64,000 bases of DNA from assembly GCA_016218925.1 (NCBI GenBank), contig JACRCR010000140.1:6389-70388 (forward strand), read 5' to 3'. A model generated the notes under the pieces. It had not been told where the DNA came from. It was given only the letters and a program-made list of their open reading frames with translations, and searched no databases. Position numbers and translations under genes: made by a program. This DNA is from Deltaproteobacteria bacterium (GTDB taxonomy: Bacteria > Desulfobacterota > Binatia > UBA1149 > CAITLU01). Positions 35,511 through 52,557 of the stretch are shown one piece after another. How positions within the stretch are numbered: the stretch's first letter is position 1; each line of letters opens with the position of its first letter.

Positions 35511-36854
35511 TCAATAAAGCCCCGGAATGATCTTTGCCGGCACGCGCCGGCAGTACTCGTCCCAGTCGGCGCCGTACTTGTTGCGACAGCGTTTGTCGTC
35601 GCGCGTGGCGCGATCGGCGAGCAGCAGGATCAGGAAGGTCAGGTAGAAGTACGGCACGAAGTGTTCGAAGCCGGCCGGAATGCTCCAGGCCAGCGCGAGC
35701 GCGATCTCCGGCACGTAGTGGAAGTGGCGCGCCAGTCCCCACCAGCCCGAGGCCAGCAGAAGGCTCTCGTGCTCGCTTGCGTCGGCGGTGGTGTAGCGCG
35801 CGTGGATCAGGTCCGGAGCGCGCCCCCAGACCGTCGTGTTGCCGCCGGTCTCGCGCACGCGCTGGCGCTGCTCATCGGCGGCATAGTTCACGTAGATCGC
35901 GGCCAGGCCGACCACGAAGATGGCTGCCGCAAGCGCCGCCGGCATGTCGTAGGGGCGCAGCACGAGGTACTGCGCGGTCAGTGCGTACACCGCTGGCACC
36001 CAGGCGAGCACGCCCCAGCAGATGTAGTAGCCGAAGCGGTCGTGCATGATGTCGAGTGAGGTGAAGTACCCGCTCTCCCACCAGAAGAACTTCAGCAGAT
36101 ACACGACGGTGATCGCCACCGACACCAGCATCGAATTGCTCACGTGCCCGAACAGCTCGCCCTGCTTGGCCGCGAACGAGCACACGATGATGCTCCATCC
36201 CATCATGCTGATGCGGCAGTTGATGAGCTGCTTGAGGTTGATGCCGAAAAGCTCGGGGTGCAGCTCGACGCCCCAGTAGTAGTCCCAGATGAAATTGCCC
36301 GAGACGCTACGATCTTCGCAGGTCGGCCACACCCGCCCCTTCACGTAGAGAAGCAGACACAGCACCAGCGCGAACACGACGAGGGTGATCAGCATCGGCC
36401 CGAACCGGTCCCACACGACTCCCGCACTGAAGAGCCCCAGACCGTAGGAACAACCGAAGAACAGACCATGGGTGACGAGCCAGGCGGCGATGCCGTTGAG
36501 CTTGTAGCGCGGGCGATTGCCGGACGGCGTGATCGGGCCGAAAAAGTCCTTTCCGGGAAGCCACTGCAACAAGGCGGTCTCGAGCACGACAAAGACCAGG
36601 ATCATCTCTGCGGCGGCCAGGCTCGGCGACGGGAAGTGCGCGGCGACCGAGCGCCAGCCCTTCGCCGTGAGCAGCGGCAACAGCGAGCCGTCAAAGGGCT
36701 CGAAGGTGCAGACGATCCAGAACAGGATCGCGGCGGGCGGGGTCGACAGGATCAGCAACAGCGGGCCGAGGCGCGAGCGGATCAGATCGACCCACGCACC
36801 GTCGCTGCCGGCCGCCCAGGTCGTGAGCTTCTGCGCTGGCGACTCATTCGACAT
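35511..36854 (-). CDS. Sterol Delta7-reductase (7-dehydrocholesterol reductase, ERG4/ERG24 family)
   Basis: 'YKLNG', 'DYYWGVELHP', 'YFTSLDIMHDRFGYYICWG', signature 'LLASGWWGLARHFHY', 'RDDKRCRNKYG..W..YC..VP..IIPGLY'. Confidence 0.93.
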   Translation of the reverse strand: MSNESPAQKLTTWAAGSDGAWVDLIRSRLGPLLLILSTPPAAILFWIVCTFEPFDGSLLPLLTAKGWRSVAAHFPSPSLAAAEMILVFVVLETALLQWLPGKDFFGPITPSGNRPRYKLNGIAAWLVTHGLFFGCSYGLGLFSAGVVWDRFGPMLITLVVFALVLCLLLYVKGRVWPTCEDRSVSGNFIWDYYWGVELHPELFGINLKQLINCRISMMGWSIIVCSFAAKQGELFGHVSNSMLVSVAITVVYLLKFFWWESGYFTSLDIMHDRFGYYICWGVLAWVPAVYALTAQYLVLRPYDMPAALAAAIFVVGLAAIYVNYAADEQRQRVRETGGNTTVWGRAPDLIHARYTTADASEHESLLLASGWWGLARHFHYVPEIALALAWSIPAGFEHFVPYFYLTFLILLLADRATRDDKRCRNKYGADWDEYCRRVPAKIIPGLY

Positions 36855-36932
36855 CTGGATCCCCGCGGCGCCGCACTCTCGCGTGCGGGGGCGCGTGGGT
36901 CAACAGCTGCGCGGTCACCAGGCGCCGGTCGT

Positions 36933-36946
36933 ATGATTTTTGTCAT
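36933..36946. promoter_or_regulatory. Crp/Fnr-type palindrome ATGAT-TTTT-GTCAT (site 1)
   Basis: In the divergent promoter between the sterol reductase and the oxidase operon; the 21-mer 36928-36948 matches 42659-42679 at 17/21 positions. Confidence 0.7.
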
Positions 36947-37036
36947 GGCCGGGTGCGCGCATCTGGTGTCTTGATGCCCACTGGGCGACCCCGGTCACCG
37001 CTTCGGTGTCCGGAAGGGCTGGTCCGGGAGGTATCG

Positions 37037-37198
37037 ATGGCCACGACGCACGACCCACAGCGGCAGATTCCGCTCGGACAGAGGCTCTACGACCGGCCTT
37101 TTCTGCTGCTCGGCTTCGGCCTCGTGGTGATGTTCGCGTTCTACACGATCTGGGGACTGCTCGAACTGATGTGGCTGCCGGTGGCCACGCTGCCGTAA
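37037..37198 (+). CDS. Small single-TM protein, probable accessory subunit (IIa-like) of the heme-copper enzyme
   Basis: 53 aa, RBS GGAGG, one hydrophobic helix, first gene before subunit II. Confidence 0.7.
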   Translation: MATTHDPQRQIPLGQRLYDRPFLLLGFGLVVMFAFYTIWGLLELMWLPVATLP

Positions 37199-37210
37199 CG
37201 GGGGAGGGAG

Positions 37211-37798
37211 ATGGAAGAACTGCACAGTGCACTGGTGGCGCCCCGCGGCATCTGGTGGAAGGCGGCCGGCCGCCAGGAGAGGATCTGGGTCACCGTCTCG
37301 TTCGTGTGGTGCATGATCCTGTTCGCGATGATGCCGCTATGGCACATCAAGGGCGGCCAGAATCCGTCCGGGATCCGAGCCAGGGTCGAGCCCGAGGCGT
37401 TTCGGCGCCGCGTCGATCAGTTCATCGCCGACTACAAGATCGGGTCGGAAGCGGGGGTTCCGTTGGTCGCGCCGCCACCCGGTTCCGACGTCTATCTGCT
37501 CGCGCGCATGTGGCAGTGGTATCCGGCGCTGGTGCTGGAAGAGGGCAAGACCTACGTGCTGCATCTCTCCTCCATCGACGTCAATCACGGGTTCAACCTG
37601 CAACCCTTCAACGTGAACTTCCAGGTGGTGCCCGGCTATGACTACGGGCTGCGCATCACGCCCAACCAGGCCGGGGACTATCGCGTGATCTGCAACGAGT
37701 ACTGCGGGATCGGGCATCACCTGATGACTGGCAAGATCCTCGTGAAGCCGGCCGGTAGCGCGGCCGTCGCGCCGGTCGCCCAAGGGGGTACGCGATGA
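37211..37798 (+). CDS. Heme-copper oxidase subunit II with CuA site (B-family/eNOR type)
   Basis: One TM, cupredoxin domain 'SSIDVNHGF' and 'CNEYCGIGHHLM'. Confidence 0.93.
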   Translation: MEELHSALVAPRGIWWKAAGRQERIWVTVSFVWCMILFAMMPLWHIKGGQNPSGIRARVEPEAFRRRVDQFIADYKIGSEAGVPLVAPPPGSDVYLLARMWQWYPALVLEEGKTYVLHLSSIDVNHGFNLQPFNVNFQVVPGYDYGLRITPNQAGDYRVICNEYCGIGHHLMTGKILVKPAGSAAVAPVAQGGTR

Positions 37799-39522
37799 GC
37801 GCCGCCGCAGCCGTCGCCGCCGTGTTTCGCCGCTGCCCGGTTACCGGTCTGAAGATCGATCGGCACGCCGAGAACCTGATCAAGGTCAACGCCGTAATCT
37901 CGATCGTCACGCTGCTGGTCGGAGTGATCGCGGCGATCGGTCTGGTGCTCACCCGCTGGCAGGCCGTGCACCTGCTGCCGGTGGACTGGTTCTACCGGCT
38001 GCTGACCGCGCACGGCCTGAACATGCTGATCTTCTTCATTCTCTACTTCGAGATGGCGGTGCTGTACTTCGCCGGACCGGTCATGCTCGGGTGCCGCGTT
38101 CCGACGCCGAGGCTGGCCTGGGGCTCGTTCGCGCTGATGCTGGCCGGAACGCTGATCGTCGAAGTGATGGTGTTCTCGGGCAAGGCCGACGTGCTGTTCA
38201 CGTCGTACCCGCCGCTCAAGGCCGATCCTTGGTACTATCTCGGCATCATCCTGTTCGCGGTCGGCGCGCTGATCGTCACCGCGATCTTCATGGCCACGCT
38301 GGTGGTGGCCAAGCGCGAGCACACCTACGAAGGTTCGGTTCCGCTGGTCACCTTCGGTGCGCTGACCGCGGCGATCATCGCGATCATCACGCTGCTGCAC
38401 GGCGCGGCGATCTACATCCCGGCGCTGGCGTGGTCACTGGGGATCATCACGCTCGATCCCGAAGTCTACCGGCTGCTGTTCTGGGGTCTCGGCCATTCGT
38501 CGCAGCAGATCAACGTCGCCGCGCAGGTTTCGATCTGGTACCTCCTTGGCGGTCTCACCGTCGGCGCGGTGGTGGTCAACGAGAAGATCAGCCGCACCGC
38601 CTTCGTGCTCTACGTCGGGTTCATTTCGATGGCATCGGCACACCACCTGCTGGTCGATCCTGGCATGGGGCCGGCGTGGAAAGTGTGGAACACCAGCTAC
38701 GCGATGTATCTGGCGGTACTGGCCAGCATGGTGCACGGTTTTACCGTGCCGGCCGGGATCGAGACCGGGCTGAGACTGCGCGGCTTCGTCAACGGAACCT
38801 TCGAATGGCTGCGCAAGGCACCGTGGAGCGATCCTGGATTCGCCGGCCTGATGCTGTCGCTGGTGATCTTCGGATTCATCGGCGGCATCACCGGCGTGAC
38901 GATGGGGACCGAACAGATCAACATCCTGGCCCACAATACGCTGCGCGTCCCCGGTCACTTCCACGCGACCGTCGTCGGTGGCACCGCGCTGTCGTTCATG
39001 GCGGTGACCTACTACCTGATCCCGCTCATCTTCCGCAAGAAAGTCGCGCTGTGGAAGCTGGCCAGGATCCAGCCGTATCTGTTCGGGATCGGCATCACGA
39101 TCTTCTCGATCTCGATGACGTTCGCCGGGATCTTCGGAGTGCCGCGACGCCACTGGGACATTTCGTTCGCGCAGGCGCCGTTCAAGTACGAGTTTCCGCC
39201 GGCAGTCGACCTGATGCTGGCGCTGACCGCGATCGGCGGATTGATGGCTGCCGCGGCGGTGCTGATCTTCATCGCCAGCGCGGTGATCTCGGTGTTCTTC
39301 GGCGAGAGCCTGGATCTTGCCGCACTGACGCCCGGGATGGCGGGCGTGCCGCAGGGACTGACCAAGCTGCCGCCCCAGCAGTACGAGTCGGAGACGGTCG
39401 CCAAGGTTCACGGCGCCGGAACGCCGGGCACGGTGGTGCTGGTGGCGGTCTTCCTGCTGGTCTTCGTGATGTACTACTACACCAACTGGAAGATGCTTTC
39501 GGTGGTGTGGAAGATCGGTTGA
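37795..39522 (+). CDS. Heme-copper oxidase subunit I, probable eNOR-type nitric oxide reductase
   Basis: Six His ligands (TAHG, GHSSQQ, AHH, GHFH); the His+4 cross-link Tyr of O2 reductases is Gln (HSSQQ at 38494-38508). Confidence 0.85.
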   Translation: MSAAAAVAAVFRRCPVTGLKIDRHAENLIKVNAVISIVTLLVGVIAAIGLVLTRWQAVHLLPVDWFYRLLTAHGLNMLIFFILYFEMAVLYFAGPVMLGCRVPTPRLAWGSFALMLAGTLIVEVMVFSGKADVLFTSYPPLKADPWYYLGIILFAVGALIVTAIFMATLVVAKREHTYEGSVPLVTFGALTAAIIAIITLLHGAAIYIPALAWSLGIITLDPEVYRLLFWGLGHSSQQINVAAQVSIWYLLGGLTVGAVVVNEKISRTAFVLYVGFISMASAHHLLVDPGMGPAWKVWNTSYAMYLAVLASMVHGFTVPAGIETGLRLRGFVNGTFEWLRKAPWSDPGFAGLMLSLVIFGFIGGITGVTMGTEQINILAHNTLRVPGHFHATVVGGTALSFMAVTYYLIPLIFRKKVALWKLARIQPYLFGIGITIFSISMTFAGIFGVPRRHWDISFAQAPFKYEFPPAVDLMLALTAIGGLMAAAAVLIFIASAVISVFFGESLDLAALTPGMAGVPQGLTKLPPQQYESETVAKVHGAGTPGTVVLVAVFLLVFVMYYYTNWKMLSVVWKIG

Positions 39523-39523
39523 G

Positions 39524-40459
39524 ATGTCCACGATGATCGCCGAGATGCCGCTGCGCGGTGACCGCGTGCCGGAAGCAGCCGCTACCGCGGTCGCGATGAT
39601 GACCTGCTGGACGCTGGTGACGGCGGCATGGTGGGCGCTTGCGCTGGCGCAGGTGTCCGACCCGCCTCCGTGGCTGGCGGTGGCCAGATCGGTGTGTTTC
39701 GGCTCGACGCCGAGCGGGCTGCCCGATACCTACGGATGGGTGGTGCTGGTGTGCGGCCCTGCGTCGATGCTCGGCGGGATTCTGGCGGTCTGGGGCCACG
39801 AACTCGTTGCACGGGTGCGGGCTGCGTGGACAGAGCCGCTCGGTCGCGTGCTGCTGGCGGCGGCGGCGGCGGCGGCGCTGTCTGGAATCGGCTGGGCGGC
39901 GGTTCGCATCCATAGCGGATTGCAGATCGTTGCGGCCGACTACGCGCCGCTCGAGGAGGGGCCGCTTCCAGCGACTCATCCGCGGCTCGACAAGGCGGTG
40001 CCGGCCTTCGACCTCGTCGACCAGAACGGGCGCGCATTCACCGATGCGGATCTGCGCGGGCGAGTCACGCTGCTGACCTTCGCGTTCGCCCACTGCCGCA
40101 CCGTCTGCCCGGTCATTCTCGAAGGTCTGCGGCGTGCTGCGGCGGCGGCACACGACCCGCGCATGCAGGCGGTGGTGATCACCCTGGATCCGTGGCGCGA
40201 CACCCCGAGCCGGCTGGCGCAGATGAAGAACGAGTGGGCGCTGCCGGTGGAGACCCACCTGCTCTCCGGCGAGGTCGGCGCGGTGACGCGCGCGCTCGAC
40301 GCCTTCGGGGTTGCCTGGAAGCGCAACGATAACGACGGCGACGTCGTCCACGCGCCGCTGGTCTACGTGGTCGGAGGCGACGGGCTGATCGCGTACGGGT
40401 TCAACAACCCGGCGCCCAACTGGCTGGTCGACGCGACGATGCGGACGGCGGCTCGGTGA
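39524..40459 (+). CDS. SCO family copper chaperone with N-terminal membrane domain
   Basis: CxxxC 'HCRTVCP', 'ITLDPWRDTP', conserved His 'VVHAPLVY'; three N-terminal TMs. Confidence 0.88.
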   Translation: MSTMIAEMPLRGDRVPEAAATAVAMMTCWTLVTAAWWALALAQVSDPPPWLAVARSVCFGSTPSGLPDTYGWVVLVCGPASMLGGILAVWGHELVARVRAAWTEPLGRVLLAAAAAAALSGIGWAAVRIHSGLQIVAADYAPLEEGPLPATHPRLDKAVPAFDLVDQNGRAFTDADLRGRVTLLTFAFAHCRTVCPVILEGLRRAAAAAHDPRMQAVVITLDPWRDTPSRLAQMKNEWALPVETHLLSGEVGAVTRALDAFGVAWKRNDNDGDVVHAPLVYVVGGDGLIAYGFNNPAPNWLVDATMRTAAR

Positions 40460-40472
40460 GCCGCTACAGCGC

Positions 40473-40985
40473 CTACTTCACGACAAAATCGGTGTCATCG
40501 CCTTCGAGAGAAACGATGCGGATGCGGCCCTCGTCGAAGGCGATCCGTCCGTCGAACGCGTAGGTGGGCAGCGGTTTGTCGCTGGCCGCGACCGAGGTCT
40601 CCGGGGCGAATCGCACCGCGACATCGTGATCGCCAGGCGTGACCGCGATCGTGGAACTGTGCGTGATCGGCCGATCGCCGTGAATTCCGGCCGGGCGGCA
40701 ACGCTCGTCGGCCACCTCCACCTCGTCAATTTTCACCTGTAGTCGGTAAGCGACCGGTGTCATCTCGCACGCCGTCGGGCGGCGCATGTGCTGGGGCAGG
40801 CCGGCCAGTTCGTCTTCAGACAGCGTGCGGCAGACCTGCGCGCGACCTGCCGAAGTGCGCAGCGCCAGTTGCAGCAACGAGCCCCGCGTAGGGTCGGAGC
40901 CCTCCATGTGCAGCACCGTGAGCGTTGCAGCCCCGAGCAGCAGTCCGCCCAGCACGCGTCCCGCGCCGACCGCGATCTCAGCCAC
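40473..40985 (-). CDS. Hypothetical membrane-anchored protein coupled to the cytochrome b fusion
   Basis: N-terminal TM; 'VCRTLSEDEL..LPQHMRRPTAC' then a beta-rich domain; GTG overlaps the upstream stop by 8 nt. Confidence 0.65.
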   Translation of the reverse strand: MAEIAVGAGRVLGGLLLGAATLTVLHMEGSDPTRGSLLQLALRTSAGRAQVCRTLSEDELAGLPQHMRRPTACEMTPVAYRLQVKIDEVEVADERCRPAGIHGDRPITHSSTIAVTPGDHDVAVRFAPETSVAASDKPLPTYAFDGRIAFDEGRIRIVSLEGDDTDFVVK

Positions 40986-42594
40986 GACTTGCCACCTGCT
41001 TCGGTTCGCACTGCGTGCCCACCTGCAAGTCGCCGGCTGGCAGGCCCGGCCCGAGCGCGGCCAGGCGTGCGCGGAAACTCTCGATCTCGGCCTCGAGGCT
41101 GCGCCACTCGCCGCGCGAAGCGGCGTGGATCGCCACGCGCCTCTTGTCGACGCGCGCCGGCAACTCCGCCTCGCGGTCGTTGTAGACGCGCTCGTACAGC
41201 CACTTGGGGCCTTCGCGGCACGGCGCGCTGCGCGGCGGGCACGCAGCTATGAAGACGCCGCCGCTACCGGCGCGCAGCAGCATTTCGATCACGGAAGTAT
41301 GAAGGTTCCCTGCGCACTCTACCGTCATGACGCTGGCACCGGGCAGCGAGGTCAGCCGGGGATCGTCGTGCAGCGGGTTGTGGCGGCAGGCCAGCAGCGT
41401 GAACCCGTCGGCGCGAACGCCGTGCTTCTCGATCAGGTCCTGCGTGCGACGCAGTTGGATGCGTCCGGTGTGCGCTGGTGGTCCTATTCCCATCGGCGCG
41501 CACGAGCCCGCGCAGATGCCGCACGCTACACAGCGCGCCGGGTTCACCCACGAGTAGAACTGCGAGCGGCGACCCGGATCGGGTCGCTCGAGCATCGAGA
41601 TCGCGTCGAAGGGGCAGTCCTTGTAGCAAGTCGTGCAGCCGGTGCACACTTCCGGGTCGGACCACGAGGGCTGCGCCCGTGCGCGTTTGTTCTTCCACCA
41701 CCAAGGCACCGAACACATCAGCGCGGCCGCAGACAGCCACGACGCCAGGTGCACCGCAGGGGAGACCTGCCAGGCCAGCGGCAGCCAGAAGTTGTAGAGC
41801 AGGTCGATCGGAACGTTGCGCGGGATCACCAGCAAGTCGGCGCGCTGGCCGAGCGGGACGCGCAGCACCAGCGCGAGCACCGACAGCACGCCGACCACGC
41901 CGATCGCGAGCGCGCGCGGCGGCGCCAGATGCGGCCGCGCGAGGTTGGCAAGGTGCAGCCACAGCGCCGCGGCCAGTCCCAGCGGCAGACACACGTGCAA
42001 GAACAGGTTCATGAAGAAGAACGACGCCGGCACCGGAGCCAGCCCGGCGAAGGCCCTTCCGATCGGCACCGAGAACAACGGCAGCAGGTCGACGATTTTG
42101 GTGAGTTCGACCGCCACCACCTGGCCCTGCAGGTCCCACGCCATCACCTGACCGGTCCAGCCGCACGCCAGCGTCGCTCCGACCAGCACAGCCCCGCTGA
42201 TCCACGCGCGCGTTCGCGGGCCATGGAAGCGTCCGGCCAGGAACATCTTGAGCGCGTGCAGCAGCGCGGCCGCCATCGCCAGGTCCGCGGCGTAGGTGTG
42301 CAGGGCGCGCACCCAGCTTCCCAGCGGGATATCGGTGTCGATGCGGGCCACCGACTGGTAGGGGTGCTCGATGCTGTAGAACAGGAACAGGAAGATGCCG
42401 GTGGTGATCAGGACCAGGAACGCGACGATCGCCAGCGTGCCGCTCTGGTGCAGCGGGTTGAAGTTCGAGGAGTAGAAACGATCGAAGAGTTCGTCGAGCC
42501 TGGTCACCGCGCTGTCGATCACCGCGACCGTGCGCGACCACGTCGCCGGCCTGGAGTTGGGCAAGTCTGCCGGTTGTGTGGCTGGGCCGCTCAA
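40978..42594 (-). CDS. Cytochrome b(N) + 2x[4Fe-4S] ferredoxin + MvhD/FlpD-like fusion protein
   Basis: Cyt b helices with 'RALHTY...LLHALKMF' and 'MNLFLHV'; CTGCTTCYKDCP and CVACGICAGSC; MvhD-like 'VECAG...GVFIAACP...CREG'. TTG start at 42594 with GGAGG RBS. Confidence 0.85.
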   Translation of the reverse strand: MSGPATQPADLPNSRPATWSRTVAVIDSAVTRLDELFDRFYSSNFNPLHQSGTLAIVAFLVLITTGIFLFLFYSIEHPYQSVARIDTDIPLGSWVRALHTYAADLAMAAALLHALKMFLAGRFHGPRTRAWISGAVLVGATLACGWTGQVMAWDLQGQVVAVELTKIVDLLPLFSVPIGRAFAGLAPVPASFFFMNLFLHVCLPLGLAAALWLHLANLARPHLAPPRALAIGVVGVLSVLALVLRVPLGQRADLLVIPRNVPIDLLYNFWLPLAWQVSPAVHLASWLSAAALMCSVPWWWKNKRARAQPSWSDPEVCTGCTTCYKDCPFDAISMLERPDPGRRSQFYSWVNPARCVACGICAGSCAPMGIGPPAHTGRIQLRRTQDLIEKHGVRADGFTLLACRHNPLHDDPRLTSLPGASVMTVECAGNLHTSVIEMLLRAGSGGVFIAACPPRSAPCREGPKWLYERVYNDREAELPARVDKRRVAIHAASRGEWRSLEAEIESFRARLAALGPGLPAGDLQVGTQCEPKQVASRG

Positions 42595-42663
42595 GGGGAC
42601 CTCCGCGACGCGGCGCCGCGGTTCTTCGTATCGATCAGGTAGCGCAATCGGCGTCGTCGTCGT

Positions 42664-42677
42664 ATGACGGATGTCAT
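42664..42677. promoter_or_regulatory. Crp/Fnr-type perfect palindrome ATGAC-GGAT-GTCAT (site 2)
   Basis: In the divergent promoter between the cytochrome b fusion and DUF2249; same flanks (GTCGT...GG) as site 1. Confidence 0.72.
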
Positions 42678-42735
42678 GGGCCCGGCGCGGCTCATTTCGT
42701 AGGTTCGATAATCGTTGCGACCGAGCGGATCCGAC

Positions 42736-43023
42736 ATGATCTACCAACCCGACGACGAGCGAGTGCGCTTCTGGCAGGACTCGACCGACCCGATGCGATC
42801 TCATCTCGACGTTCGCGAACTGCTCGAGGACGGCGGCGAACCCTACGCGATCATCATGGAGTGCGTGAACAGGCTGCAAGGCGGCGAGTGCGTGGTGCTG
42901 CATGCGATCATGCAGCCGCGCCCGTTGCTGGCCCAACTGGGTAGGATGGGTTTCGCCTGCGACGTGCGCCACGTTGGCGCCGATCACTGGGAAGTCGACA
43001 TCAGCGCAAGGGCGCAGGCCTGA
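42736..43023 (+). CDS. DUF2249 domain protein
   Basis: 'LDVRELLEDGGEPYAIIMECVNRLQGGECVVLHAIMQPRPLLAQLGRMGF...HWEV' fits the DUF2249/TusA-like pattern. Confidence 0.75.
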   Translation: MIYQPDDERVRFWQDSTDPMRSHLDVRELLEDGGEPYAIIMECVNRLQGGECVVLHAIMQPRPLLAQLGRMGFACDVRHVGADHWEVDISARAQA

Positions 43024-43040
43024 CGGCCCGCGCGGCCGGT

Positions 43041-44501
43041 TCAGGCCTGCGCCCCGGCGCGCGTGGTTCCGTTTCGCAGGCGGCTGTGGCGCACGCCGTA
43101 GGCGCTGTAGATCACCAGACCGATCATCAGCCACACGAGCAACCTCAGCCAGTTGGCCCAGCCGAGCGAGAACATCAGCAGCAGATTGGCGCCGATCCCG
43201 AGCAGCGGCACCGCCGGCACCAGCGGCGTGCGGAACGGCCGCCGCACTTCGGGTCGCGTGCGGCGCATGATCAGCACGGCTGCGCACACGATCACGAACG
43301 CGAACAACGTTCCGATGTTGACCAGCTCCGAGAGCACCTTGAGGGGAAACAGCGCGGCCACTGTCGCGACGAACGCGCCGGTCAGGACGGTCGACAGATA
43401 CGGAGTGCGAAATCGCGGGTGGATTGCGGCGAAGATCGCTGGCGGCAGCAATCCGTCGCGCGCCATCGCCAGCAGCACGCGGGCCTGGCTCAGCATCATG
43501 ACGAGCAACACGCTGGTGATGCCCGCCACCGCACCGAGCGAGATGATGAGCGTGGCGGTGCCCAGCCCGTAGCGGGCGAAAGCCTCGGCCAGCGGTGCGT
43601 CGATGTTGATCTGGGGCGTCGGGACCATGCCGGTCAGTACGCCCGCCACCGCGATATAGAGCAGGGTACAGACTCCGAGCGAGCCGAGCAGCGCCAGCGG
43701 CACGTCGCGTTCGGGATGGCGCGCCTCTTCGGCGTGGGTGCTGATCGAATCGAACCCGATGTAGGCGAAGAATACGTAGCCGGCGCCTCGCAGGGTGCCG
43801 CTCCAGCCCTGTGGAAAGAACGGCTGCCAGTTGGCCGGGTCGACGTGAGGGATGCCGGCAAGGATCACGAACATCTCGACGCCGAGCTTGAGTGCGACGA
43901 TCAGCACGTTGAGTCGCGAGCTCTCGCGAATTCCGATCACCAGCACGACCGTGAGCGCGACCACGATCGCGGCGGCGGGCAGGTCGAAGACGATCGGCAC
44001 GGAGCCGATGTGCCACGCCTCGGCCAGCACCTGCGGTGACGCGCTGAACGGATCGATCGACAGCGGCCCCGGCACGCGGATGCCGAACAGTCCCAGGAAG
44101 GATTGGAAGTAGTGCGACCAACCGTGCGCCACCGCGCACGAGGCCACCGCGTACTCGAGGACCAGATCCCAGCCGATGATCCACGCGAACAGTTCGCCGA
44201 GGGTGGCGTACGCGTAGGTGTAGGCACTGCCTGCCACCGGGATCATTGCGGCGAACTCCGCGTAGCACAGACCGGCCAGCGCGCAGCCGAGCCCCGAGAG
44301 CACGAACGAGAGCATCAGCGAGGGCCCGGCGTAGTCGCGGGCAGCCAGGCCGGTGAGTACGAAGATGCCGGCGCCTATGATCGCGCCGACTCCGAGCGCG
44401 GTCAGCGACACCGGACCCAGCACGCGGTGGAGGCGGTCGTGCGCCTGCAGCTCGGCATGGAGCAACTCGACGGACTTGCGGGCGAAGAGGGGGCTGGCCA
44501 A
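43041..44501 (-). CDS. APC-family amino acid permease (cationic amino acid transporter-like)
   Basis: 'LGVGAIIGAGIF', 'CYAEFAAMIPVAGSAY', 'FFAYIGFD', 'MARDGLLP'. Confidence 0.95.
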   Translation of the reverse strand: MASPLFARKSVELLHAELQAHDRLHRVLGPVSLTALGVGAIIGAGIFVLTGLAARDYAGPSLMLSFVLSGLGCALAGLCYAEFAAMIPVAGSAYTYAYATLGELFAWIIGWDLVLEYAVASCAVAHGWSHYFQSFLGLFGIRVPGPLSIDPFSASPQVLAEAWHIGSVPIVFDLPAAAIVVALTVVLVIGIRESSRLNVLIVALKLGVEMFVILAGIPHVDPANWQPFFPQGWSGTLRGAGYVFFAYIGFDSISTHAEEARHPERDVPLALLGSLGVCTLLYIAVAGVLTGMVPTPQINIDAPLAEAFARYGLGTATLIISLGAVAGITSVLLVMMLSQARVLLAMARDGLLPPAIFAAIHPRFRTPYLSTVLTGAFVATVAALFPLKVLSELVNIGTLFAFVIVCAAVLIMRRTRPEVRRPFRTPLVPAVPLLGIGANLLLMFSLGWANWLRLLVWLMIGLVIYSAYGVRHSRLRNGTTRAGAQA

Positions 44502-44574
44502 AGTGCGCGCAGTCTACACGCGGCCGCTCATCGCGCAACGTTGCAGTGCACACATGACAGCGGCCCGCACCCTC

Positions 44575-45267
44575 TCACGAGCCTCCTGCAAGCTGGGCCA
44601 TGGCGCGCCGATCGCGCACGCAAAGGCCGCGATCGTCCTGGCCGATCAGCCCGTCCTTCTGCCAGCGGCTCATGATGCGGATGACGGTCTCGATGCGTGC
44701 GCCGACCATGTCGGCGAGATCCTGACGGGTCAGCGGGATCGGCAGGTAGACCGGGCCGGGCTGGTCCGGCGACTTGGCACACAGGGCCTGCAGAACCCTG
44801 GCGATGCGGTACTCGACTCCGCCTCCGCCAAGATCCTCCATGCGTCGCTGCATCACGCGCATGCGCAGCGTCAGATCGCGGATCAGCGCGATGGCGGTTC
44901 CCTCGAAGCGCTCGAGGTAGGTGAAGTAGGCTTGGCGCGGCATCACCCATACGGTCGCGTCCTCGTGGGCGGAGGCCGAGGCCGGATAGCCGGTGCCGTC
45001 GATGACCGCGACCTCTCCGATGGCATCGCCGAAACGGAAGATGCCGAGAATCAACTCGCGCCCGCTCTCGAGCGAGCGAAAGACTTTCACCGCGCCGCTT
45101 TCGACCAGCCACAGATGCGAAGAATCCTCGCCCTCCAGGAACAGCATCGCGCCCTTGGCGTAGGAGCGCCGCGATAGCTGCTCGGCCAGCCAGGTGAGTG
45201 CCTGCTGCGACACGCCGCTGAAGCGCGGTATTCGGCTGATGGTGCCGATGGAGTCGGGGTCGATCAC
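44575..45267 (-). CDS. Crp/Fnr family regulator (no FNR Cys cluster; DNR/HcpR-like)
   Basis: cNMP-binding fold 'LFLEGE...GAVKV...GDAIGE', HTH 'LTRQDLADMVGARIETVIRIMSRW'. Confidence 0.92.
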   Translation of the reverse strand: MIDPDSIGTISRIPRFSGVSQQALTWLAEQLSRRSYAKGAMLFLEGEDSSHLWLVESGAVKVFRSLESGRELILGIFRFGDAIGEVAVIDGTGYPASASAHEDATVWVMPRQAYFTYLERFEGTAIALIRDLTLRMRVMQRRMEDLGGGGVEYRIARVLQALCAKSPDQPGPVYLPIPLTRQDLADMVGARIETVIRIMSRWQKDGLIGQDDRGLCVRDRRAMAQLAGGS

Positions 45268-45276
45268 GCTGTCACA

Positions 45277-46806
45277 TCATTGGGGCCGCGGCGACGTGTC
45301 GGCCGTCGGCCAGCCTCCGGCAAGTGCCTTGTAGAGCGCCACCGCGTCTTCGGCAACGGCGCCGCGGCTCGATGCCAGTGCATCCTCGGCGTAGTACAGC
45401 GAGCGTTCGGCATCGAGCACCTGCAGGAACTCGACCACACCGCCGGCGAACAGTTCGCGCGCGAGGTCGGCGCCGCGTTTCTCCGCTTCGGCGGCGCGGC
45501 CCAGTGCCTCGGTTCTCTCGCGTTCGGATCCGAGTGCGGTCAGCGCCGTTTCGACGTCTGCCAGCGCTCTTCGCACCGCGTCCTCGTAGCGCGCGGCGGC
45601 CTGCTCGGTGCGGGCGCTGTGCACCTCGACGTTGGCGAGCAGACGCCCGGCGTCGAAGATCGGCCAGCGCATCCCCGGGCCGACCAGCCAGAAGCGGCTG
45701 TCGCTCGTGAGCAGGTTGCCGGTCTGCTGGCTCTGGAAGCCGAAGCTGCCGCTGAGCGAAAAGCGCGGCAGCAATTCGGCGCGCGCAACCCCGATGCGCG
45801 CGGTCGCGGCGGCCAGTTCGCGCTCGGCGCGTCCGAGGTCGGGGCGGCGCAGCAGCAATTGCGACGGCAAGCCGGCCTCGACCAAGCGCGGTGGGGTCGG
45901 AACCTCATGGGCGGCCTCGAACTGCCGGTCGAGAGCGCCGGAGTCGGCGGCGACGAGTACCTCCAGGCGGTGCATGGTCGCGCTTCGCCGGCTGCGCAGC
46001 GCCGGCACATCGGCCTCGGTGGCGGCCAGCCGCGCCTGCGCTCGCGCGACGTCGAGCTCGCTCGAGACGCCGGCGTCGTGGCGCTGGCGTATCACGCTCA
46101 GCGTGTCGGCTTGCGCGGCCATGTTGTGTTTGGCGATCGCGAGCCTCGCATCGAGCGTGCGCAGCGTGATCACTTCACGCGCGGTCTCGGCCGCCAGGCT
46201 CAGCAACGCGTCGCCGTATGCCGCTTCGGCGGCCTGCAGTTCGGCGTTGGCCGCCTGCACCGAGCGGCGCACGTGTCCGAACAGGTCGACTTCCCACTGC
46301 GCGTCGAAGCCGGTCTGGTACAGATCGATCGACTGGCCCGGCAGCACTGCGCCCGGCAGGGTGCCGCCGCCGGTGTTGGTGCCGGTGCCGAACCCCTCGA
46401 GAAAACCGTGCTCGCTCATGCGCGAGTTCGAGTAGGAGGCGGTCGCGTCGAGCTTCGGCCACAGACCTGCCCCGGCTACCGCGCGCAGCGCCCGTGCTTC
46501 GCGTACACGCGCGGCGGCTTCGCGTGCTCTTGGCGTGGCGCGGACGGCACGCTCTACCAGCGCCGCGAGATCGTCGTCGCAGAAGCCGCGCCACCAGCTC
46601 TGCTGCAGCGCCGCGTCGTGTTGCGCGCCGGCCGCTTCGCCGCCGCGCGGTGCTTGCTCGCTCGTACCCGCAGTCCATGCCGCCGGCGAGTCGATCTGCG
46701 GCCGCTGATAATCCGGACCTACCGCGCAGCCTTGCACCGCCGCCAGCGCGCACAGGCACGCGATACTCCCTGCGATCGCGACGGCGCGCAAGGCGGAGCG
46801 CTTCAT
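45277..46806 (-). CDS. NodT/TolC-family efflux outer membrane lipoprotein
   Basis: Lipobox 'VQGCAVGP', 'FDAQWEVDLFG', 'PSQLLLRRPD', 'LYKALAGGW'. ATG at 46806. Confidence 0.92.
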   Translation of the reverse strand: MKRSALRAVAIAGSIACLCALAAVQGCAVGPDYQRPQIDSPAAWTAGTSEQAPRGGEAAGAQHDAALQQSWWRGFCDDDLAALVERAVRATPRAREAAARVREARALRAVAGAGLWPKLDATASYSNSRMSEHGFLEGFGTGTNTGGGTLPGAVLPGQSIDLYQTGFDAQWEVDLFGHVRRSVQAANAELQAAEAAYGDALLSLAAETAREVITLRTLDARLAIAKHNMAAQADTLSVIRQRHDAGVSSELDVARAQARLAATEADVPALRSRRSATMHRLEVLVAADSGALDRQFEAAHEVPTPPRLVEAGLPSQLLLRRPDLGRAERELAAATARIGVARAELLPRFSLSGSFGFQSQQTGNLLTSDSRFWLVGPGMRWPIFDAGRLLANVEVHSARTEQAAARYEDAVRRALADVETALTALGSERERTEALGRAAEAEKRGADLARELFAGGVVEFLQVLDAERSLYYAEDALASSRGAVAEDAVALYKALAGGWPTADTSPRPQ

Positions 46807-48410
46807 TCCAGCACCACTGCGGCTGCGCCCGCGGTGCTCGGCGGCTTGCGGATCAGCAGCATCATCGGGACCACGATCAGGAAGCCGATCGACATCATGC
46901 GGAACACGTCGACGAAGGCCAGGGTGCGGGCCTGAGCGCCGAGCATCTGGTAGATCGCGGCCTGAGCCTGCGCGGTAGCCTGCGCGAGATCGGAGGTATG
47001 GGCCGAGAACGCCGCGGTGAGCTGGGTCATCCACGCGCCGTAGGCCGGATCCAGCGGCGTGGCGTGCGCCACCAGCAGACTCTGATGGACCTGAGCCTGG
47101 CGCGCGATCATCGTAGCCATCGACGCGATTCCGACGCTGGCGCCGATGTTGCGCGCCAGGCTGATCAGGCTGGAGGCCGCACCGCGGTCGGCGGTACGTA
47201 TGAAAGCGTATGAGACGGTGCTCAGCGGCACGAAGATGAAAGCCATCCCGAGCCCCTGCAGCATACGCGCGACGACGATGTCGCCGAAGGCGACGTCGAG
47301 GCTGAAGCGTCCCATCGCGAACAGTGCCGAGGAGACCACCAGCGCGCCGAAGATGATCATCTTGCGAGCGTCCAGGTGTGCGACCAGCCAGCCGACGATC
47401 GGCATGAAGAACATGATGACGAGTCCACTCGGCGACACCGCCATGCCGCTGAGCATCGCGGTGTAGCCCATCAGCGTCTGTGTGAAGAGCGGAATCAGCA
47501 CGGTGCTGCCGTACAACACGAACCCGAACAGCAGCGTTGCCGCGACCGACAGCGCGAAGTTGCGTTCCCCGAGCAGCCGCAGGTCAACCACCGGGTCCTC
47601 GTGGCGCAATTCCCACCAGATCGTGAAGACGAACGCGGTGACCGACGCCACCGCCAGCGTGCAGATGAAGCGCGACGCCATCCAGTCGTAGCGCTCGCCG
47701 AGGTCGAGGATCATCTGCAGCGCGCCGATCGCCAGCGCCAGCCCTCCCAGTCCCATCCAGTCGATCGAACTGCGCTCGGCGCCGTGGCGTCGCGGCAGGA
47801 ACGGAGGGTCGGTGATGAAGCGCGACGACAGCAGCAGCGACAGCACGCCGATCGGCACGTTGATGAAGAACACCCAGCGCCAGCTCGCGTTGTCGGTGAT
47901 CCAGCCTCCGAGCGTGGGCCCGATCACCGGCGCCGCCACCACCGTCATTCCGTAGACCGCCATGCCCATCCCGCGCTTGGCCAGCGGAAAGGTGTCGACC
48001 AGGATCGCCTGCGTGGAGGGCTGCAGTCCGCCGCCGCCTAGCCCCTGCAGCAGCCGGCACAGTACCAGCACCGAGAGGTTGGGCGCCAGTCCGCACAGCA
48101 GCGAGCTGAGCGTGAACAGTGCCACGCACGCGAGGTAGAAGTTGCGCCTGCCGAACAGTGTGGACATCCAGCCGCTGATCGGCAACACGATCGCATTGGA
48201 GACCAGATAGGAGGTCAGGATCCAGGTGCTGTCTTCGACGCCTGCGCCGAGGTTGCCGGCGATGTGTGGCAGCGCGACGTTGGCGATGCTCGTGTCGAGG
48301 ATTTCCATGAAAGTTGCCAGCGTGGCCACGACCGCGATCAGCCACGGATTGAAAGGGGCGTGGAAGTGCTCCACGCCCGACTCGTCGCTCGCGGCTGCAG
48401 CCGCGCTCAC
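46803..48410 (-). CDS. DHA2/EmrB family MFS efflux permease
   Basis: 'MEILDTSIANVALPHIAG', 'GPTLGGWITDN', 'WRWVFFINVPIG'; about 14 TMs. Confidence 0.95.
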   Translation of the reverse strand: MSAAAAASDESGVEHFHAPFNPWLIAVVATLATFMEILDTSIANVALPHIAGNLGAGVEDSTWILTSYLVSNAIVLPISGWMSTLFGRRNFYLACVALFTLSSLLCGLAPNLSVLVLCRLLQGLGGGGLQPSTQAILVDTFPLAKRGMGMAVYGMTVVAAPVIGPTLGGWITDNASWRWVFFINVPIGVLSLLLSSRFITDPPFLPRRHGAERSSIDWMGLGGLALAIGALQMILDLGERYDWMASRFICTLAVASVTAFVFTIWWELRHEDPVVDLRLLGERNFALSVAATLLFGFVLYGSTVLIPLFTQTLMGYTAMLSGMAVSPSGLVIMFFMPIVGWLVAHLDARKMIIFGALVVSSALFAMGRFSLDVAFGDIVVARMLQGLGMAFIFVPLSTVSYAFIRTADRGAASSLISLARNIGASVGIASMATMIARQAQVHQSLLVAHATPLDPAYGAWMTQLTAAFSAHTSDLAQATAQAQAAIYQMLGAQARTLAFVDVFRMMSIGFLIVVPMMLLIRKPPSTAGAAAVVLE

Positions 48411-49555
48411 CGAACTTTCACCGCCGGGACCACCGACATGCCGGCCCCGAGCAGGTAGCGCGACGGATCGGGCTGCTCGTCGAAGACGATCTTGACCGGA
48501 ACGCGCTGCACCACTTTGACGTAGTTGCCGGTGGCATTCTCGGGCGGCAGCAGGCTGAAGCGCGACCCCGCGCCGGCCTGTATGCTCTCGACGCGACCGC
48601 GGAACGTCGCGTCGGGATACGCATCGACATGCAGCTCGGCGATCGCCCCCGGCCGCACGCCTTCGAGCTGGGTCTCCTTGAAGTTGGCCACCACCCAGCG
48701 CTCGGCGGGCAGCAGAGCCATCAGGATCTGTCCTTTCTGGACGTAGTTGCCCGGCTGTACGTTCTTGCGCGTGATGCGGCCGGCTTCGGGCGCGACGATG
48801 TGCGTGTATGAGACTTCGAGCGTGGCCGCATCGACCGCTGCGCGCGCACGCGCAGCAGCGGCCTCGGCGCGTGCCACATCGGCCTCGCGTACGGCGAGTT
48901 CGTGCGGCGCGGCCTCGGCGGCGGCCAGGCGGCCGCCGGCGGCCGCTACTGCCGCACGCGCCGCGGCTACGTTCCTGCGCGCCGCCTCCAGGCGCGCCTC
49001 TGCGGTGCGCGCTTTGGACTGGGCCGCCTCGCGCTGCTGGTCGGAAATCGCGCGATCGCTCAGGTGACGGTAGCGCGCCAGGTCCGAGCCGGCCTGCGTG
49101 GACTCGCTCGCTGCGGCGCTTTGCTGCGCTTCGGCTTCAGTGAGTCTGGCGCGTGCGGATTCGAGAATCGCTCCGGCTTCGTCCACCGCCGCAGCGGTAG
49201 TGGTACGCGCCGCTTCGAAGGTCGCGCGCGCGGCGTCGATTTCGGCCTCGGCGAGCCGCAGCGCGGCGCGGGCCTGCGCCAGATCCGCGTCGGCGTCGCG
49301 AGAGTCGATGTCGATCATCGGCTGGCCGGCCTGCACCTCCTGGTTTTCCGATACGTGGACGCCGGCGACGCGACCCGCGATCGAAGGGCTAACCTGCGCG
49401 ACGCGCGCTTCGATGAAAGCGTCGTCGGTAGAAACCCAGGCCCGCCACACCAGCAGGTAGCGAAGTCCGAGGCCGGCGCCGACCAACGCGACGACAATCG
49501 CGACGGCGATCGGCACGCGACCGCGCATCGGCTTGGAGAGCATGTTCGCGCTCAT
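48407..49555 (-). CDS. EmrA/HlyD family adaptor protein
   Basis: 'STDDAF', 'IVAPEAG', 'VVANFKETQL', 'FSLLPPENATGNYVKVVQRVPVKI'. Confidence 0.95.
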   Translation of the reverse strand: MSANMLSKPMRGRVPIAVAIVVALVGAGLGLRYLLVWRAWVSTDDAFIEARVAQVSPSIAGRVAGVHVSENQEVQAGQPMIDIDSRDADADLAQARAALRLAEAEIDAARATFEAARTTTAAAVDEAGAILESARARLTEAEAQQSAAASESTQAGSDLARYRHLSDRAISDQQREAAQSKARTAEARLEAARRNVAAARAAVAAAGGRLAAAEAAPHELAVREADVARAEAAAARARAAVDAATLEVSYTHIVAPEAGRITRKNVQPGNYVQKGQILMALLPAERWVVANFKETQLEGVRPGAIAELHVDAYPDATFRGRVESIQAGAGSRFSLLPPENATGNYVKVVQRVPVKIVFDEQPDPSRYLLGAGMSVVPAVKVR

Positions 49556-50331
49556 CGTTTTCTCCGCGACGCGCTCTCGTCCGGCTGCGGCTGCCGGGCT
49601 CGCGTCTTGGTGTCGCTCGCGCCGCTGGCCGCCGCGTGCGACCGGTCGGTGCGCAGGCCCGCCAGCGAGAACGCCGTGATGTGTTGCGCCAGCGCGTCGA
49701 GGTCGAGGCTCGTACCGGGCGTCATCGCGGCCAGCAACGCACGTGCGCTGCGGTGCACGCTGCACTGGCCCATGATGCTCGCGACGTTCAGTCGCGTGTC
49801 GGCGCAGTCGCCCGGCTGTCCGGTGATCTGCGAGACGATCGCGGCCAGTTCGTGGAACATCGGCTCGGCGACCTCGTCGACCATGACCGCGAACGCGGGG
49901 CCAGGGTCGGCCAGCTCGCGTGTCATCAGGCGTCCGTGCCAGGCCGGACGCCCGCGATCGAGCAGGCGCCTCAGAAAGGTCACGATGAAGCGGTGCAGCG
50001 CGCCCTCGGCATCGGTCCTGGCGAGCGCGGCCAGGCCGTCGATCGGATAGCGTTCGGCCGCGTACTCCTGGGTGCTGCGCAGCACCGCTTCGTAGAGCGC
50101 GGCCTTGGACCCGAAGTGGTAGGCCACCGCCGAGACGTTGGCGTTGGCGCGGCCGCAGATCTCGCGCACCGCGCCGCCGCGGTAGCCGTGCTCGGCGAAC
50201 ACCGCGCCGGCTGCCTCGAGCAGGCGCCGTCGAGTCGCCGCCGCAGTAGCGCCGCCGGCTGCGGCTCCGCGGCGCGTCCTGGGCAGTGCAGGTGTTGTCA
50301 GCGAGGAGCGGGGAGGCCGGCGACGTGGCAT
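49552..50331 (-). CDS. TetR regulator, CecR/DUF1956 type
   Basis: 'TRRRLLEAAGAVFAEHGY...VREICGRANANVSAVAYHFGSK', 'GRLMTRELADP', 'HITAFSLAGL'. ATG at 50331. Confidence 0.9.
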   Translation of the reverse strand: MPRRRPPRSSLTTPALPRTRRGAAAGGATAAATRRRLLEAAGAVFAEHGYRGGAVREICGRANANVSAVAYHFGSKAALYEAVLRSTQEYAAERYPIDGLAALARTDAEGALHRFIVTFLRRLLDRGRPAWHGRLMTRELADPGPAFAVMVDEVAEPMFHELAAIVSQITGQPGDCADTRLNVASIMGQCSVHRSARALLAAMTPGTSLDLDALAQHITAFSLAGLRTDRSHAAASGASDTKTRARQPQPDESASRRKR

Positions 50332-52517: not shown

Positions 52518-52557
52518 TGCGCGCGCCTGTCCCCGGCGCCGGCGGGGAGAACTCGCG

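Follow-up and report, generated by a model that had tools for sequence, protein, structure and literature searches.

Gene content of the operon

The stretch of DNA analyzed here (the window) comprises 64,000 nucleotides of a Deltaproteobacteria bacterium of the Binatia (assembly GCA_016218925.1, contig JACRCR010000140.1, positions 6,389 to 70,388). At 37037–40459 it carries on the forward strand four close-packed genes, which an earlier note on this DNA had read as a probable operon for an eNOR-type nitric oxide (NO) reductase of the heme-copper superfamily. The first gene (37037–37198) starts with ATG, has a GGAGG-like site upstream and encodes a 53-amino-acid single-helix membrane protein with one hydrophobic segment. 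It is followed by the genes for the predicted eNOR subunit II (37211–37798; 195 amino acids; PF00116, COX2), which has one transmembrane (TM) helix and a periplasmic CuA cupredoxin domain, for the catalytic subunit I (37795–39522; 575 amino acids; PF00115, COX1, 1.8e-63) and for an SCO/SenC copper chaperone (39524–40459; 311 amino acids; PF02630, SCO1/SenC, 2.6e-25). The genes for subunits II and I overlap in ATGA, and a single nucleotide separates subunit I from SCO. All four genes were found where the earlier note had placed them, and Pfam agrees with the naming of the last three. The extent that the earlier note gave to the locus ended too early: two more conserved genes, a cytochrome b/iron-sulfur (FeS) gene and its partner, were overlooked at 40473–42594 on the reverse strand. 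Searching 36700–43100 for sigma-70 promoters and terminators yielded nothing informative, and the FNR/Dnr box TTGAT-N4-ATCAA had nine matches against 6.4 expected, none of them inside the two promoter regions.

The best PDB match of subunit II is subunit II of the ba3 oxidase (6e-19, residues 21–179), and its CuA region at 37691–37726 reads CNEYCGIGHHLM. A full set of CuA ligands is present, and H126, C161, C165, H169 and M172 are invariant or nearly so in 144 subunit II sequences. The same is true of Glu23, the equivalent of Glu15 at the K-channel entrance of ba3 subunit II.

Conservation of the window's proteins was counted by tblastn against 83 related loci. The 53-amino-acid protein has no Pfam match, and a counterpart was placed in the same position in 76 of these loci; in Rhodothermus marinus a 52-amino-acid open reading frame (ORF) occupies the equivalent position. 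By position and size only, the small protein would be the counterpart of ba3 subunit IIa and may thus form a IIa-like third subunit. SCO was found in 58 of the 83 loci. It matches Sco proteins in the PDB and carries CRTVC at 40094–40108. Canonical SCO proteins have a single anchor helix, and here the N terminus (39524–39990) forms a polytopic membrane extension of about 150 amino acids. This extension is kept in relatives, in which tblastn alignments usually begin near residue 20–35. The chaperone most likely serves CuA assembly, metallating the CuA site.

Active site and family placement of subunit I

Among proteins of known structure, subunit I is closest to the Thermus thermophilus ba3 oxidase (~1e-43, phmmer). 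Nucleotides 38461–38538 translate to EVYRLLFWGLGHSSQQINVAAQVSIW, and the helix VI motif GHSSQQ falls exactly at 38491–38508 on the forward strand, as had been reported; the translated stretch that carries it is LFWGLGHSSQQINVAAQVSIW. The motif includes His234, a ligand of the B-site metal, and the pair Gln237 and Gln238. In the phmmer alignment the query segment lfwglghssqqinv lies on lfwwtghpivyfwl of ba3, and a pairwise alignment also pairs GHSSQQ with GH233PIVY237. Gln238 is thus found at the position of Tyr237, the cross-linked Tyr of ba3, and the Tyr of HPxVY is lacking, as the earlier note had recognized. The six His ligands that it described are all present: H73 and H390 for the low-spin heme, H388 for the high-spin heme, and H234, H283 and H284 for the B-site metal.

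These positions were followed in an alignment of 185 sequences, comprising 160 motif-bearing relatives, 24 representatives of other groups and ba3. The only change to the six metal ligands across the 160 relatives is Lys at the H390 site in two of them, which matches the His/Lys low-spin heme that is known from some eNORs (PMC11214002). Gln237, Gln238 and Asn240, which correspond to Val236, Tyr237 and Trp239 of ba3, occur in all 160 relatives, and because the Gln-Gln pair is invariant in these homologues GHSSQQ is no chance motif. Equally invariant are Tyr249 and Ser311, the equivalents of Tyr248 and Ser309 in the ba3 K-path, and His314, which replaces ba3 Thr312. The equivalent of ba3 Thr315 (Thr317) is Thr or Ser in 154 of the 160, the position of ba3 Ser261 holds Ser or Asn (Asn262 in the query), and that of ba3 Tyr244 holds Val or Ile (Val in the query).

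The sole Tyr before the HH pair of helix VII is Tyr273, which is found family-wide and lies 10 residues ahead of the pair. In C-family enzymes the active-site Tyr lies 6 residues before the HH pair, as in the P. stutzeri cbb3 structure, and the statement that no such Tyr occurs here was borne out. Tyr273 is also present in four of five sequences of the Tyr-bearing sister group and in five of five of another family. Since it is common to the nearest Tyr-bearing relatives, we do not regard it as a migrated cofactor.

The enzyme might still be seen as an unusual O2-reducing B-family oxidase that uses another Tyr, for example Tyr273, or tolerates the loss of Tyr. In favor of this, Pfam and NCBI names point to a cytochrome oxidase, no solved structure matches better than that of ba3 oxidase, the locus shares CuA, SCO and a K-like proton path with oxidases, and Tyr273 is invariant across the family. 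The placement and distribution of Tyr273, described above, speak against this. So do the NCBIfam oxidase models (aa3, bo3, cbb3), which are all far under cutoff for subunit I (CtaD, for example, scores 82 bits against 671) and thus indicate a heme-copper enzyme outside the families that NCBI names. Relatives of the enzyme, moreover, adjoin nirK or nirS. Finally, the His-Tyr cofactor is found in all known O2-reducing heme-copper enzymes, and the eNOR of R. marinus did not reduce O2 with several donors (PMC11214002). Lacking the cofactor, the enzyme would be unable to supply the fourth electron for O2 reduction. We consider an O2 reductase very improbable. Homologues are nevertheless named "cytochrome c oxidase subunit 1" or "cbb3-type cytochrome c oxidase subunit I", the mislabeling that the earlier note had predicted.

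The residue at the position of the cross-linked Tyr separates the families of the superfamily. It is Tyr in O2 reductases and Gln in eNOR (PMC8756737, Table A4, section 2.7.1; after Hemp and Gennis 2008), and Asn in sNOR and CuANOR/bNOR, Asp in gNOR and Glu in cNOR and qNOR (PMC8756737, Table A4); the earlier note was right about the Gln of eNOR. In addition to Gln238 at His+4 of helix VI, the locus has a CuA-bearing subunit II, the B-site and heme His ligands are kept, and the residues present predict a B-type K-channel that includes the ba3 Ser309 equivalent (PMC11214002, section 8). Subunit I also groups with named eNORs apart from O2 reductases in the tree described below.

The remaining families were considered and rejected. 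The SCO neighbor suggested sNOR, whose clusters reportedly also carry senC/SCO; sNOR was ruled out by Gln instead of Asn at the Tyr site and by the retained ba3-type Ser309. The Asn expected of bNOR/CuANOR is likewise replaced by Gln238. In gNOR an active-site His is changed to Asp and subunit II is devoid of CuA ligands (PMC11214002, section 7), and here the three His and the CuA ligands are present. For cNOR, qNOR and nNOR, His+4 would have to be Glu, the fourth FeB ligand, instead of Gln, and the second subunit would be a cytochrome c instead of a CuA protein; nNOR further has a His/Met low-spin heme, for which the query ligands are His/His. The motif GHSSQQ departs from the GHPxVY of B-family O2 reductases of the ba3 type, and membership of the C family (cbb3 type) is contradicted by the distance of Tyr273 from the HH pair and by the lack of a cytochrome c subunit.

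In a neighbor-joining (NJ) tree of 67 sequences with our own reference set and 100 bootstraps, all Gln-Gln sequences formed one clade with 99% support, and the B family stood apart at 100%. Subunit I falls inside this clade and not among the GHPxVY B-family enzymes, in agreement with the assignment of the earlier note. It pairs at 100% bootstrap with the protein of a Candidatus Binatia metagenome-assembled genome (MAG; L001), and its identity to Binatia MAGs is 80–81%. The clade also includes Rhodothermus (L196), Natrinema, Natrarchaeobius and Thermus members, and a Magnetospirillum MAG has the same motif at 50% identity. The 90% cluster of the Rhodothermus protein holds ACY47069.1 (WP_012842681.1) of R. 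marinus DSM 4252, to which the query is 43% identical over 572 amino acids (E 6e-151). At 50–88% identity the clade extends over Bdellovibrionota, Acidobacteriota, Gemmatimonadota, Methylomirabilota and many Proteobacteria, a spread over many phyla that speaks for strong selection as well as horizontal transfer.

In the genome collection, a degenerate DNA pattern for GHxxQQ[IV]N...WY had at least 120 matches. All of those listed are true homologues (39–76% identical), among them a Rhodothermus sp. MAG, Natrinema thermotolerans, a Magnetospirillum MAG and Candidatus Accumulibacter, as well as the cultured strains Pollutimonas bauzanensis, Litoreibacter arenae and Defluviimonas. Only two Gln-Gln groups came to light among 1.84 billion representatives: the cluster of the query itself (P0121, 57% identical) and one from haloarchaea (P0126, Natrarchaeobius, 39%). 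One step further out, relatives that are 39–44% identical, from Hodarchaeales and Thermoproteota among others, keep the Tyr in GH-x-x-Q-Y. Ordinary B-family enzymes are 30–34% identical and have GHPxVY, and Tyr stands in the cofactor column in 15 of 15 B-family sequences (14 library representatives and ba3).

Two observations concern other groups in these alignments. The nearest Tyr-bearing relatives (P0127, P0128, P0129 and P0142) have the motif GH-x-x-Q-Y-[VI]-N; eNOR differs from them at the cofactor site by a single Tyr-to-Gln change, the rest of the motif being common to both. A separate heme-copper group (P0161, P0172, P0202, P0227 and P0254; 28–34% identity) has F-H-x-x-H-Y on helix VI and, in the alignment, Tyr at the first His of the HH pair and at the high-spin heme His. 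This group could be another proposed NOR family or could reflect an alignment shift.

Predicted NO reduction and its metabolic context

Pfam and NCBIfam scans covered the ~40 largest reading frames of the 64-kb window, short of an exhaustive gene call. In these frames no nir, nos or heme A synthase (ctaA) gene turned up, in keeping with the earlier note, which had reported nirK/nirS, nosZ and heme A synthase to be absent from the window. Heme o synthase, CtaA and COX15 were likewise missing from the cluster and from the frames covered. A molybdopterin oxidoreductase with an Fe4S4 domain is encoded at 52360–54726 (+); its best NCBIfam models are PhsA, Fdh-alpha and NasC, and because all of them are far under cutoff it cannot be called a nitrate reductase.

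Related loci were more informative. A NirK or NirS-like gene was found within 8 kb in 12 of the 51 related loci with large flanks, including those of relatives 66–77% identical to the query, and the NirK genes checked scored 339–461 bits on TIGR02376 (cutoff 296). On Thermus thermophilus megaplasmids a homologue with GHGAQQVN adjoins nirS, a nirK-like multicopper gene, cytochrome P460 and an Rrf2 regulator. The adjoining nirK and nirS genes of relatives support NO as the substrate. In Ferrigenium straubiae, eNOR transcripts outnumbered those of the other heme-copper oxidoreductases during denitrifying Fe(II) oxidation, a condition under which the proteins were detected too (bioRxiv 10.64898/2026.01.22.701106).

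From its sequence, we consider it highly probable that the locus encodes an NO reductase of the eNOR family, a B-family-derived member of the heme-copper superfamily, together with assembly and accessory genes. The diagnostic Gln, the 99% clade and the R. marinus homologue all argue for this reading, which is that of the earlier note. Several points weigh against it. We know of no purified enzyme from the clade with the cytochrome b module, and the function of this clade, with its members at 50–88% identity, would be transferred from a thermophilic enzyme that is 43% identical. The tree was built by NJ only and is devoid of sNOR, bNOR and C-family references, that subunit I has no substitute Tyr is judged by sequence position, and the B-site metal may be Fe or Cu. 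That the purified R. marinus eNOR is ACY47069.1 is deduced from the Gln motif, as the main text of PMC11214002 gives no accession. The cluster is also without ctaA, whereas the eNOR of R. marinus contains heme As and ctaA is part of many eNOR operons (PMC11214002); since that source says many and not all operons, the missing gene does not exclude eNOR membership. Finally, with no nir, nos or ctaA in the scanned frames, the role of the enzyme may be respiratory or detoxifying.

On the eNOR reading, electrons would pass from a periplasmic donor to CuA, on to the low-spin heme and from there to the binuclear heme/non-heme-metal site, at which 2 NO + 2 e- + 2 H+ would yield nitrous oxide (N2O) + H2O. 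Protons would probably be taken from the cytoplasm via the K-like path, and the reaction would in that case be electrogenic.

The main task of an eNOR-type enzyme in a non-denitrifying aerobe could instead be NO detoxification in oxic or microoxic conditions, and not a step of respiratory denitrification. The failure to find nir and nos in the scanned part of the window, the low share of large-flank relatives with a nitrite reductase nearby, the many carriers from aerobic lineages (Bdellovibrionota, Gemmatimonadota, Binatia) and the Rrf2-type regulator that adjoins the operon in some loci are all consistent with such a role, and a broader role of eNOR in NO detoxification was suggested in the Ferrigenium preprint (bioRxiv 10.64898/2026.01.22.701106). 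However, nitrite reductase genes may sit elsewhere in the genome, the retained K-type channel and the dedicated redox module speak for a respiratory enzyme that conserves energy, and both R. marinus and Ferrigenium use eNOR during denitrification (PMC11214002; bioRxiv 10.64898/2026.01.22.701106). We regard a mainly detoxifying role as unlikely, while giving it appreciable weight.

A different chemistry at the altered binuclear site, such as NO dismutation, N2O reduction or turnover of peroxide or peroxynitrite, would make the cytochrome b/FeS module a sign of a different electron flow. NO dismutation or N2O reduction has been proposed for other heme-copper families that lack the Tyr (PMC11214002, section 5), and the gene context of the clade with the cytochrome b-FeS-FlpD protein is unlike that of the characterized R. 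marinus locus. Yet this clade and the homologue of R. marinus DSM 4252 do not differ in the three active-site His, Gln-Gln or Asn240, and the proposed NO dismutase and N2O reductase families are related to qNOR/cNOR and not to the B family (PMC11214002). Such a chemistry appears most unlikely to us, and NO reduction by an eNOR is preferred.

The conserved cytochrome b module, neighboring genes and known systems

The two overlooked genes encode a 538-amino-acid cytochrome b-2x[4Fe-4S]-FlpD fusion (40978–42594, -), which is supported by Pfam, synteny and an AlphaFold2 (AF2) model, and a 170-amino-acid beta-sandwich protein with an N-terminal TM helix (40473–40985, -). The fusion gene starts with TTG at 42594, with a GGAGG site ahead, and its stop is overlapped by 8 nt by the start of the beta-sandwich gene. 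In the window both genes are convergent with SCO; elsewhere they lie on the same strand after SCO, or divergently upstream. The fusion is present in 70 of the 83 related loci and the beta-sandwich protein in 55, where its gene comes after the cytochrome b gene. Three independently chosen homologues of the fusion all adjoin COX1 and SCO. The module is not found at the R. marinus, haloarchaeal, Thermus and Thermomicrobium loci. A larger ORF of 1191 amino acids (40978–44553, -) was rejected as a high-GC artefact: only its last 538 codons (40978–42594) are a genuine gene, and the remainder runs antisense to a DUF2249 gene and out of frame through an amino-acid permease gene (43041–44501).

In the fusion a bc1-type di-heme cytochrome b (helices A–F) is followed by a 2x[4Fe-4S] ferredoxin domain and an FlpD/MvhD-like domain, as seen from matches to PF00033 (cytochrome b N-terminal, 3e-18), Fer4 families and PF02662 (FlpD/MvhD, 2.7e-9). 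The heme-ligand His pairs H99/H113 and H200/H214, on helices B and D with a spacing of 14, are invariant, and so are two CxxCxxCxxxC motifs and four more Cys. The AF2 model has a pLDDT (predicted local distance difference test) of 83.8. Foldseek matches it to bc1 cytochrome b over 285–350 columns, spanning helices A–F and the ef loop, in which P-x5-D-x4-FW-x-P stands in place of PEWY. By homology, the FeS and FlpD domains would be cytoplasmic. Longer members of the fusion family (P0404, P0413 and P0419; locus L207:4265-6511), of ~750 amino acids and thus ~200 residues longer, also lie beside eNOR and SCO, and FAD- and NADH-binding domains are described for one such cytochrome b/FeS protein in the Ferrigenium preprint (bioRxiv 10.64898/2026.01.22.701106).

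The 170-amino-acid protein has no Pfam match and no significant fold match in the PDB (Foldseek); its AF2 model (pLDDT 79) consists of a TM helix and a beta-sandwich. Two Cys and two His do not vary among eight close homologues. Across 50 diverse homologues the conserved residues are C52, R53, E59, M67, R68, C73, G100 and G118, and the His are not kept. A Rieske-, cupredoxin- or PCuAC-like metal carrier was rejected on this loss of His and the lack of a fold match.

The fusion and the beta-sandwich protein are most likely a dedicated redox module of this eNOR clade. The fusion would combine a bc1-like di-heme membrane part with a Qo-like ef loop and a cytoplasmic FeS wire, and it may deliver electrons from quinol to eNOR. 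In a more far-reaching version, the two proteins would be obligate partners of this large and mostly uncultured clade, forming a Rieske-less bc-like quinol-oxidizing module with a cytoplasmic FeS chain, which would couple the highly exergonic reduction of NO, in the manner of a Qo site, to electron transfer to or from a low-potential carrier in the cytoplasm. We consider this version unlikely. A respiratory supercomplex of this sort was suggested from one genus in a 2026 preprint, so far without biochemical characterization (bioRxiv 10.64898/2026.01.22.701106).

Further genes flank the cluster. The DUF2249 gene (42736–43023, +; PF10006, 6e-12) is divergent from the cytochrome b gene and is syntenic only in the two closest Binatia-like loci (L001 and L032); its product is possibly associated with the cluster. 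A Crp/Fnr-family regulator (44575–45267, -; cNMP_binding and HTH_Crp_2 in Pfam, all NCBIfam matches under cutoff) is also syntenic in these two loci and is a possible regulator of the cluster. More distant loci have instead a Crp-family gene, which adjoins the cluster in 11 of the 83 loci, a hemerythrin (27 loci) or an Rrf2 regulator. The DUF2249, Crp, hemerythrin or Rrf2 neighbors could be O2- or NO-responsive control elements.

Directly upstream of the operon and divergent from it lies a gene for an ERG4/ERG24-family sterol-reductase-like membrane protein (35511–36854, -; PF01222, 2.3e-77). This family is uncommon in bacteria, and such a gene adjoins eNOR in only one of the 83 loci. On the other side, an efflux system of three genes (45277–49765, -) encodes an outer-membrane factor (OEP), a major facilitator superfamily transporter and a HlyD-type adaptor.

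The enzyme family itself is already known: eNOR was predicted in 2008 and characterized in 2024, and it has been tallied in hundreds of genomes, with 547 in GTDB and 2,709 in IMG metagenomes (PMC11214002, Table 1). The window adds a further member, with a Binatia carrier. Enzymes of this family are routinely annotated as cytochrome c oxidase, and genome surveys thus fail to count capacity to produce N2O, a greenhouse gas and the predicted product of this oxidase-like enzyme. Of more use as a lead is the near-universal cytochrome b/FeS/FlpD partner, which is not found at the locus of the R. marinus strain, the only eNOR carrier with a biochemical study, and could explain the electron route to these enzymes and energy conservation in NO reduction.

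Reduction of NO without reduction of O2 is known so far only from the R. marinus enzyme: the eNOR purified from strain DSM 4252 forms N2O from NO and does not reduce O2 (PMC11214002, section 6); it has heme As in both heme sites and a B-type K-channel (PMC11214002). Its homologue shares with the query the motif GH-x-x-Q-Q-I-N, the six His ligands, Asn240, Tyr249, Tyr273, Ser311 and His314, as well as the gene order (small ORF, subunit II, subunit I) and the 99% clade. The R. marinus locus differs from the window in that SCO, cytochrome b-FeS-FlpD and beta-sandwich genes are all missing within 10 kb, and the protein of this thermophile belongs with those of haloarchaea to a separate GHG(S/T)QQIN subclade (100% bootstrap). 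A 259-amino-acid membrane protein without a Pfam or NCBIfam match follows subunit I in R. marinus DSM 4252 (L204:11732-12511) and in three further loci (L196, L166 and L102), and is 32–88% identical among its R. marinus and haloarchaeal carriers. It shows no similarity to the N-terminal SCO extension of the window, and may be the "eNOR scaffold protein" of the Ferrigenium preprint.

The Thermus ba3 oxidase (PDB 1EHK, 1XME) resembles the query in its three-subunit layout (I, II and the small IIa), its CuA and its heme and metal ligands, and in a single K-type path with Glu15(II), Ser309, Thr315 and Tyr248. It differs in GHPIVY, whose Tyr237 is cross-linked to His233, where the query has GHSSQQ, and in Trp239, Tyr244 and Thr312, for which the query has Asn, Val and His. 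The Thermus enzyme is a proton-pumping O2 reductase. Like the query, sNOR, known from norSY-senC clusters of ammonia oxidizers, and bNOR/CuANOR of Bacillus azotoformans are B-family-derived and Tyr-less and have a CuA subunit II. Both have Asn at the Tyr position (PMC8756737, Table A4), and sNOR is without the ba3-type Ser309 (PMC11214002, section 8) that is kept in the query.

The closest parallel to the neighborhood as a whole, likened by description, is the eNOR operon of Ferrigenium straubiae, which comprises eNOR II, eNOR I, heme o synthase, sco1, a "scaffold protein of unknown function" and two cytochrome b/[Fe-S] genes (bioRxiv 10.64898/2026.01.22.701106). The cluster in the window differs from it in having no heme o synthase, a gene (cyoE) that is also found in related proteobacterial loci (70 of ~205 loci), and in having a single cytochrome b/FeS gene that ends in FlpD and has no FAD or NADH domains. 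The preprint calls its cytochrome b genes "rather unusual" and speculates on a quinol:NAD+ oxidoreductase (bioRxiv 10.64898/2026.01.22.701106). With 70 of 83 loci carrying it, a cytochrome b/FeS partner is the norm for this clade throughout many phyla.

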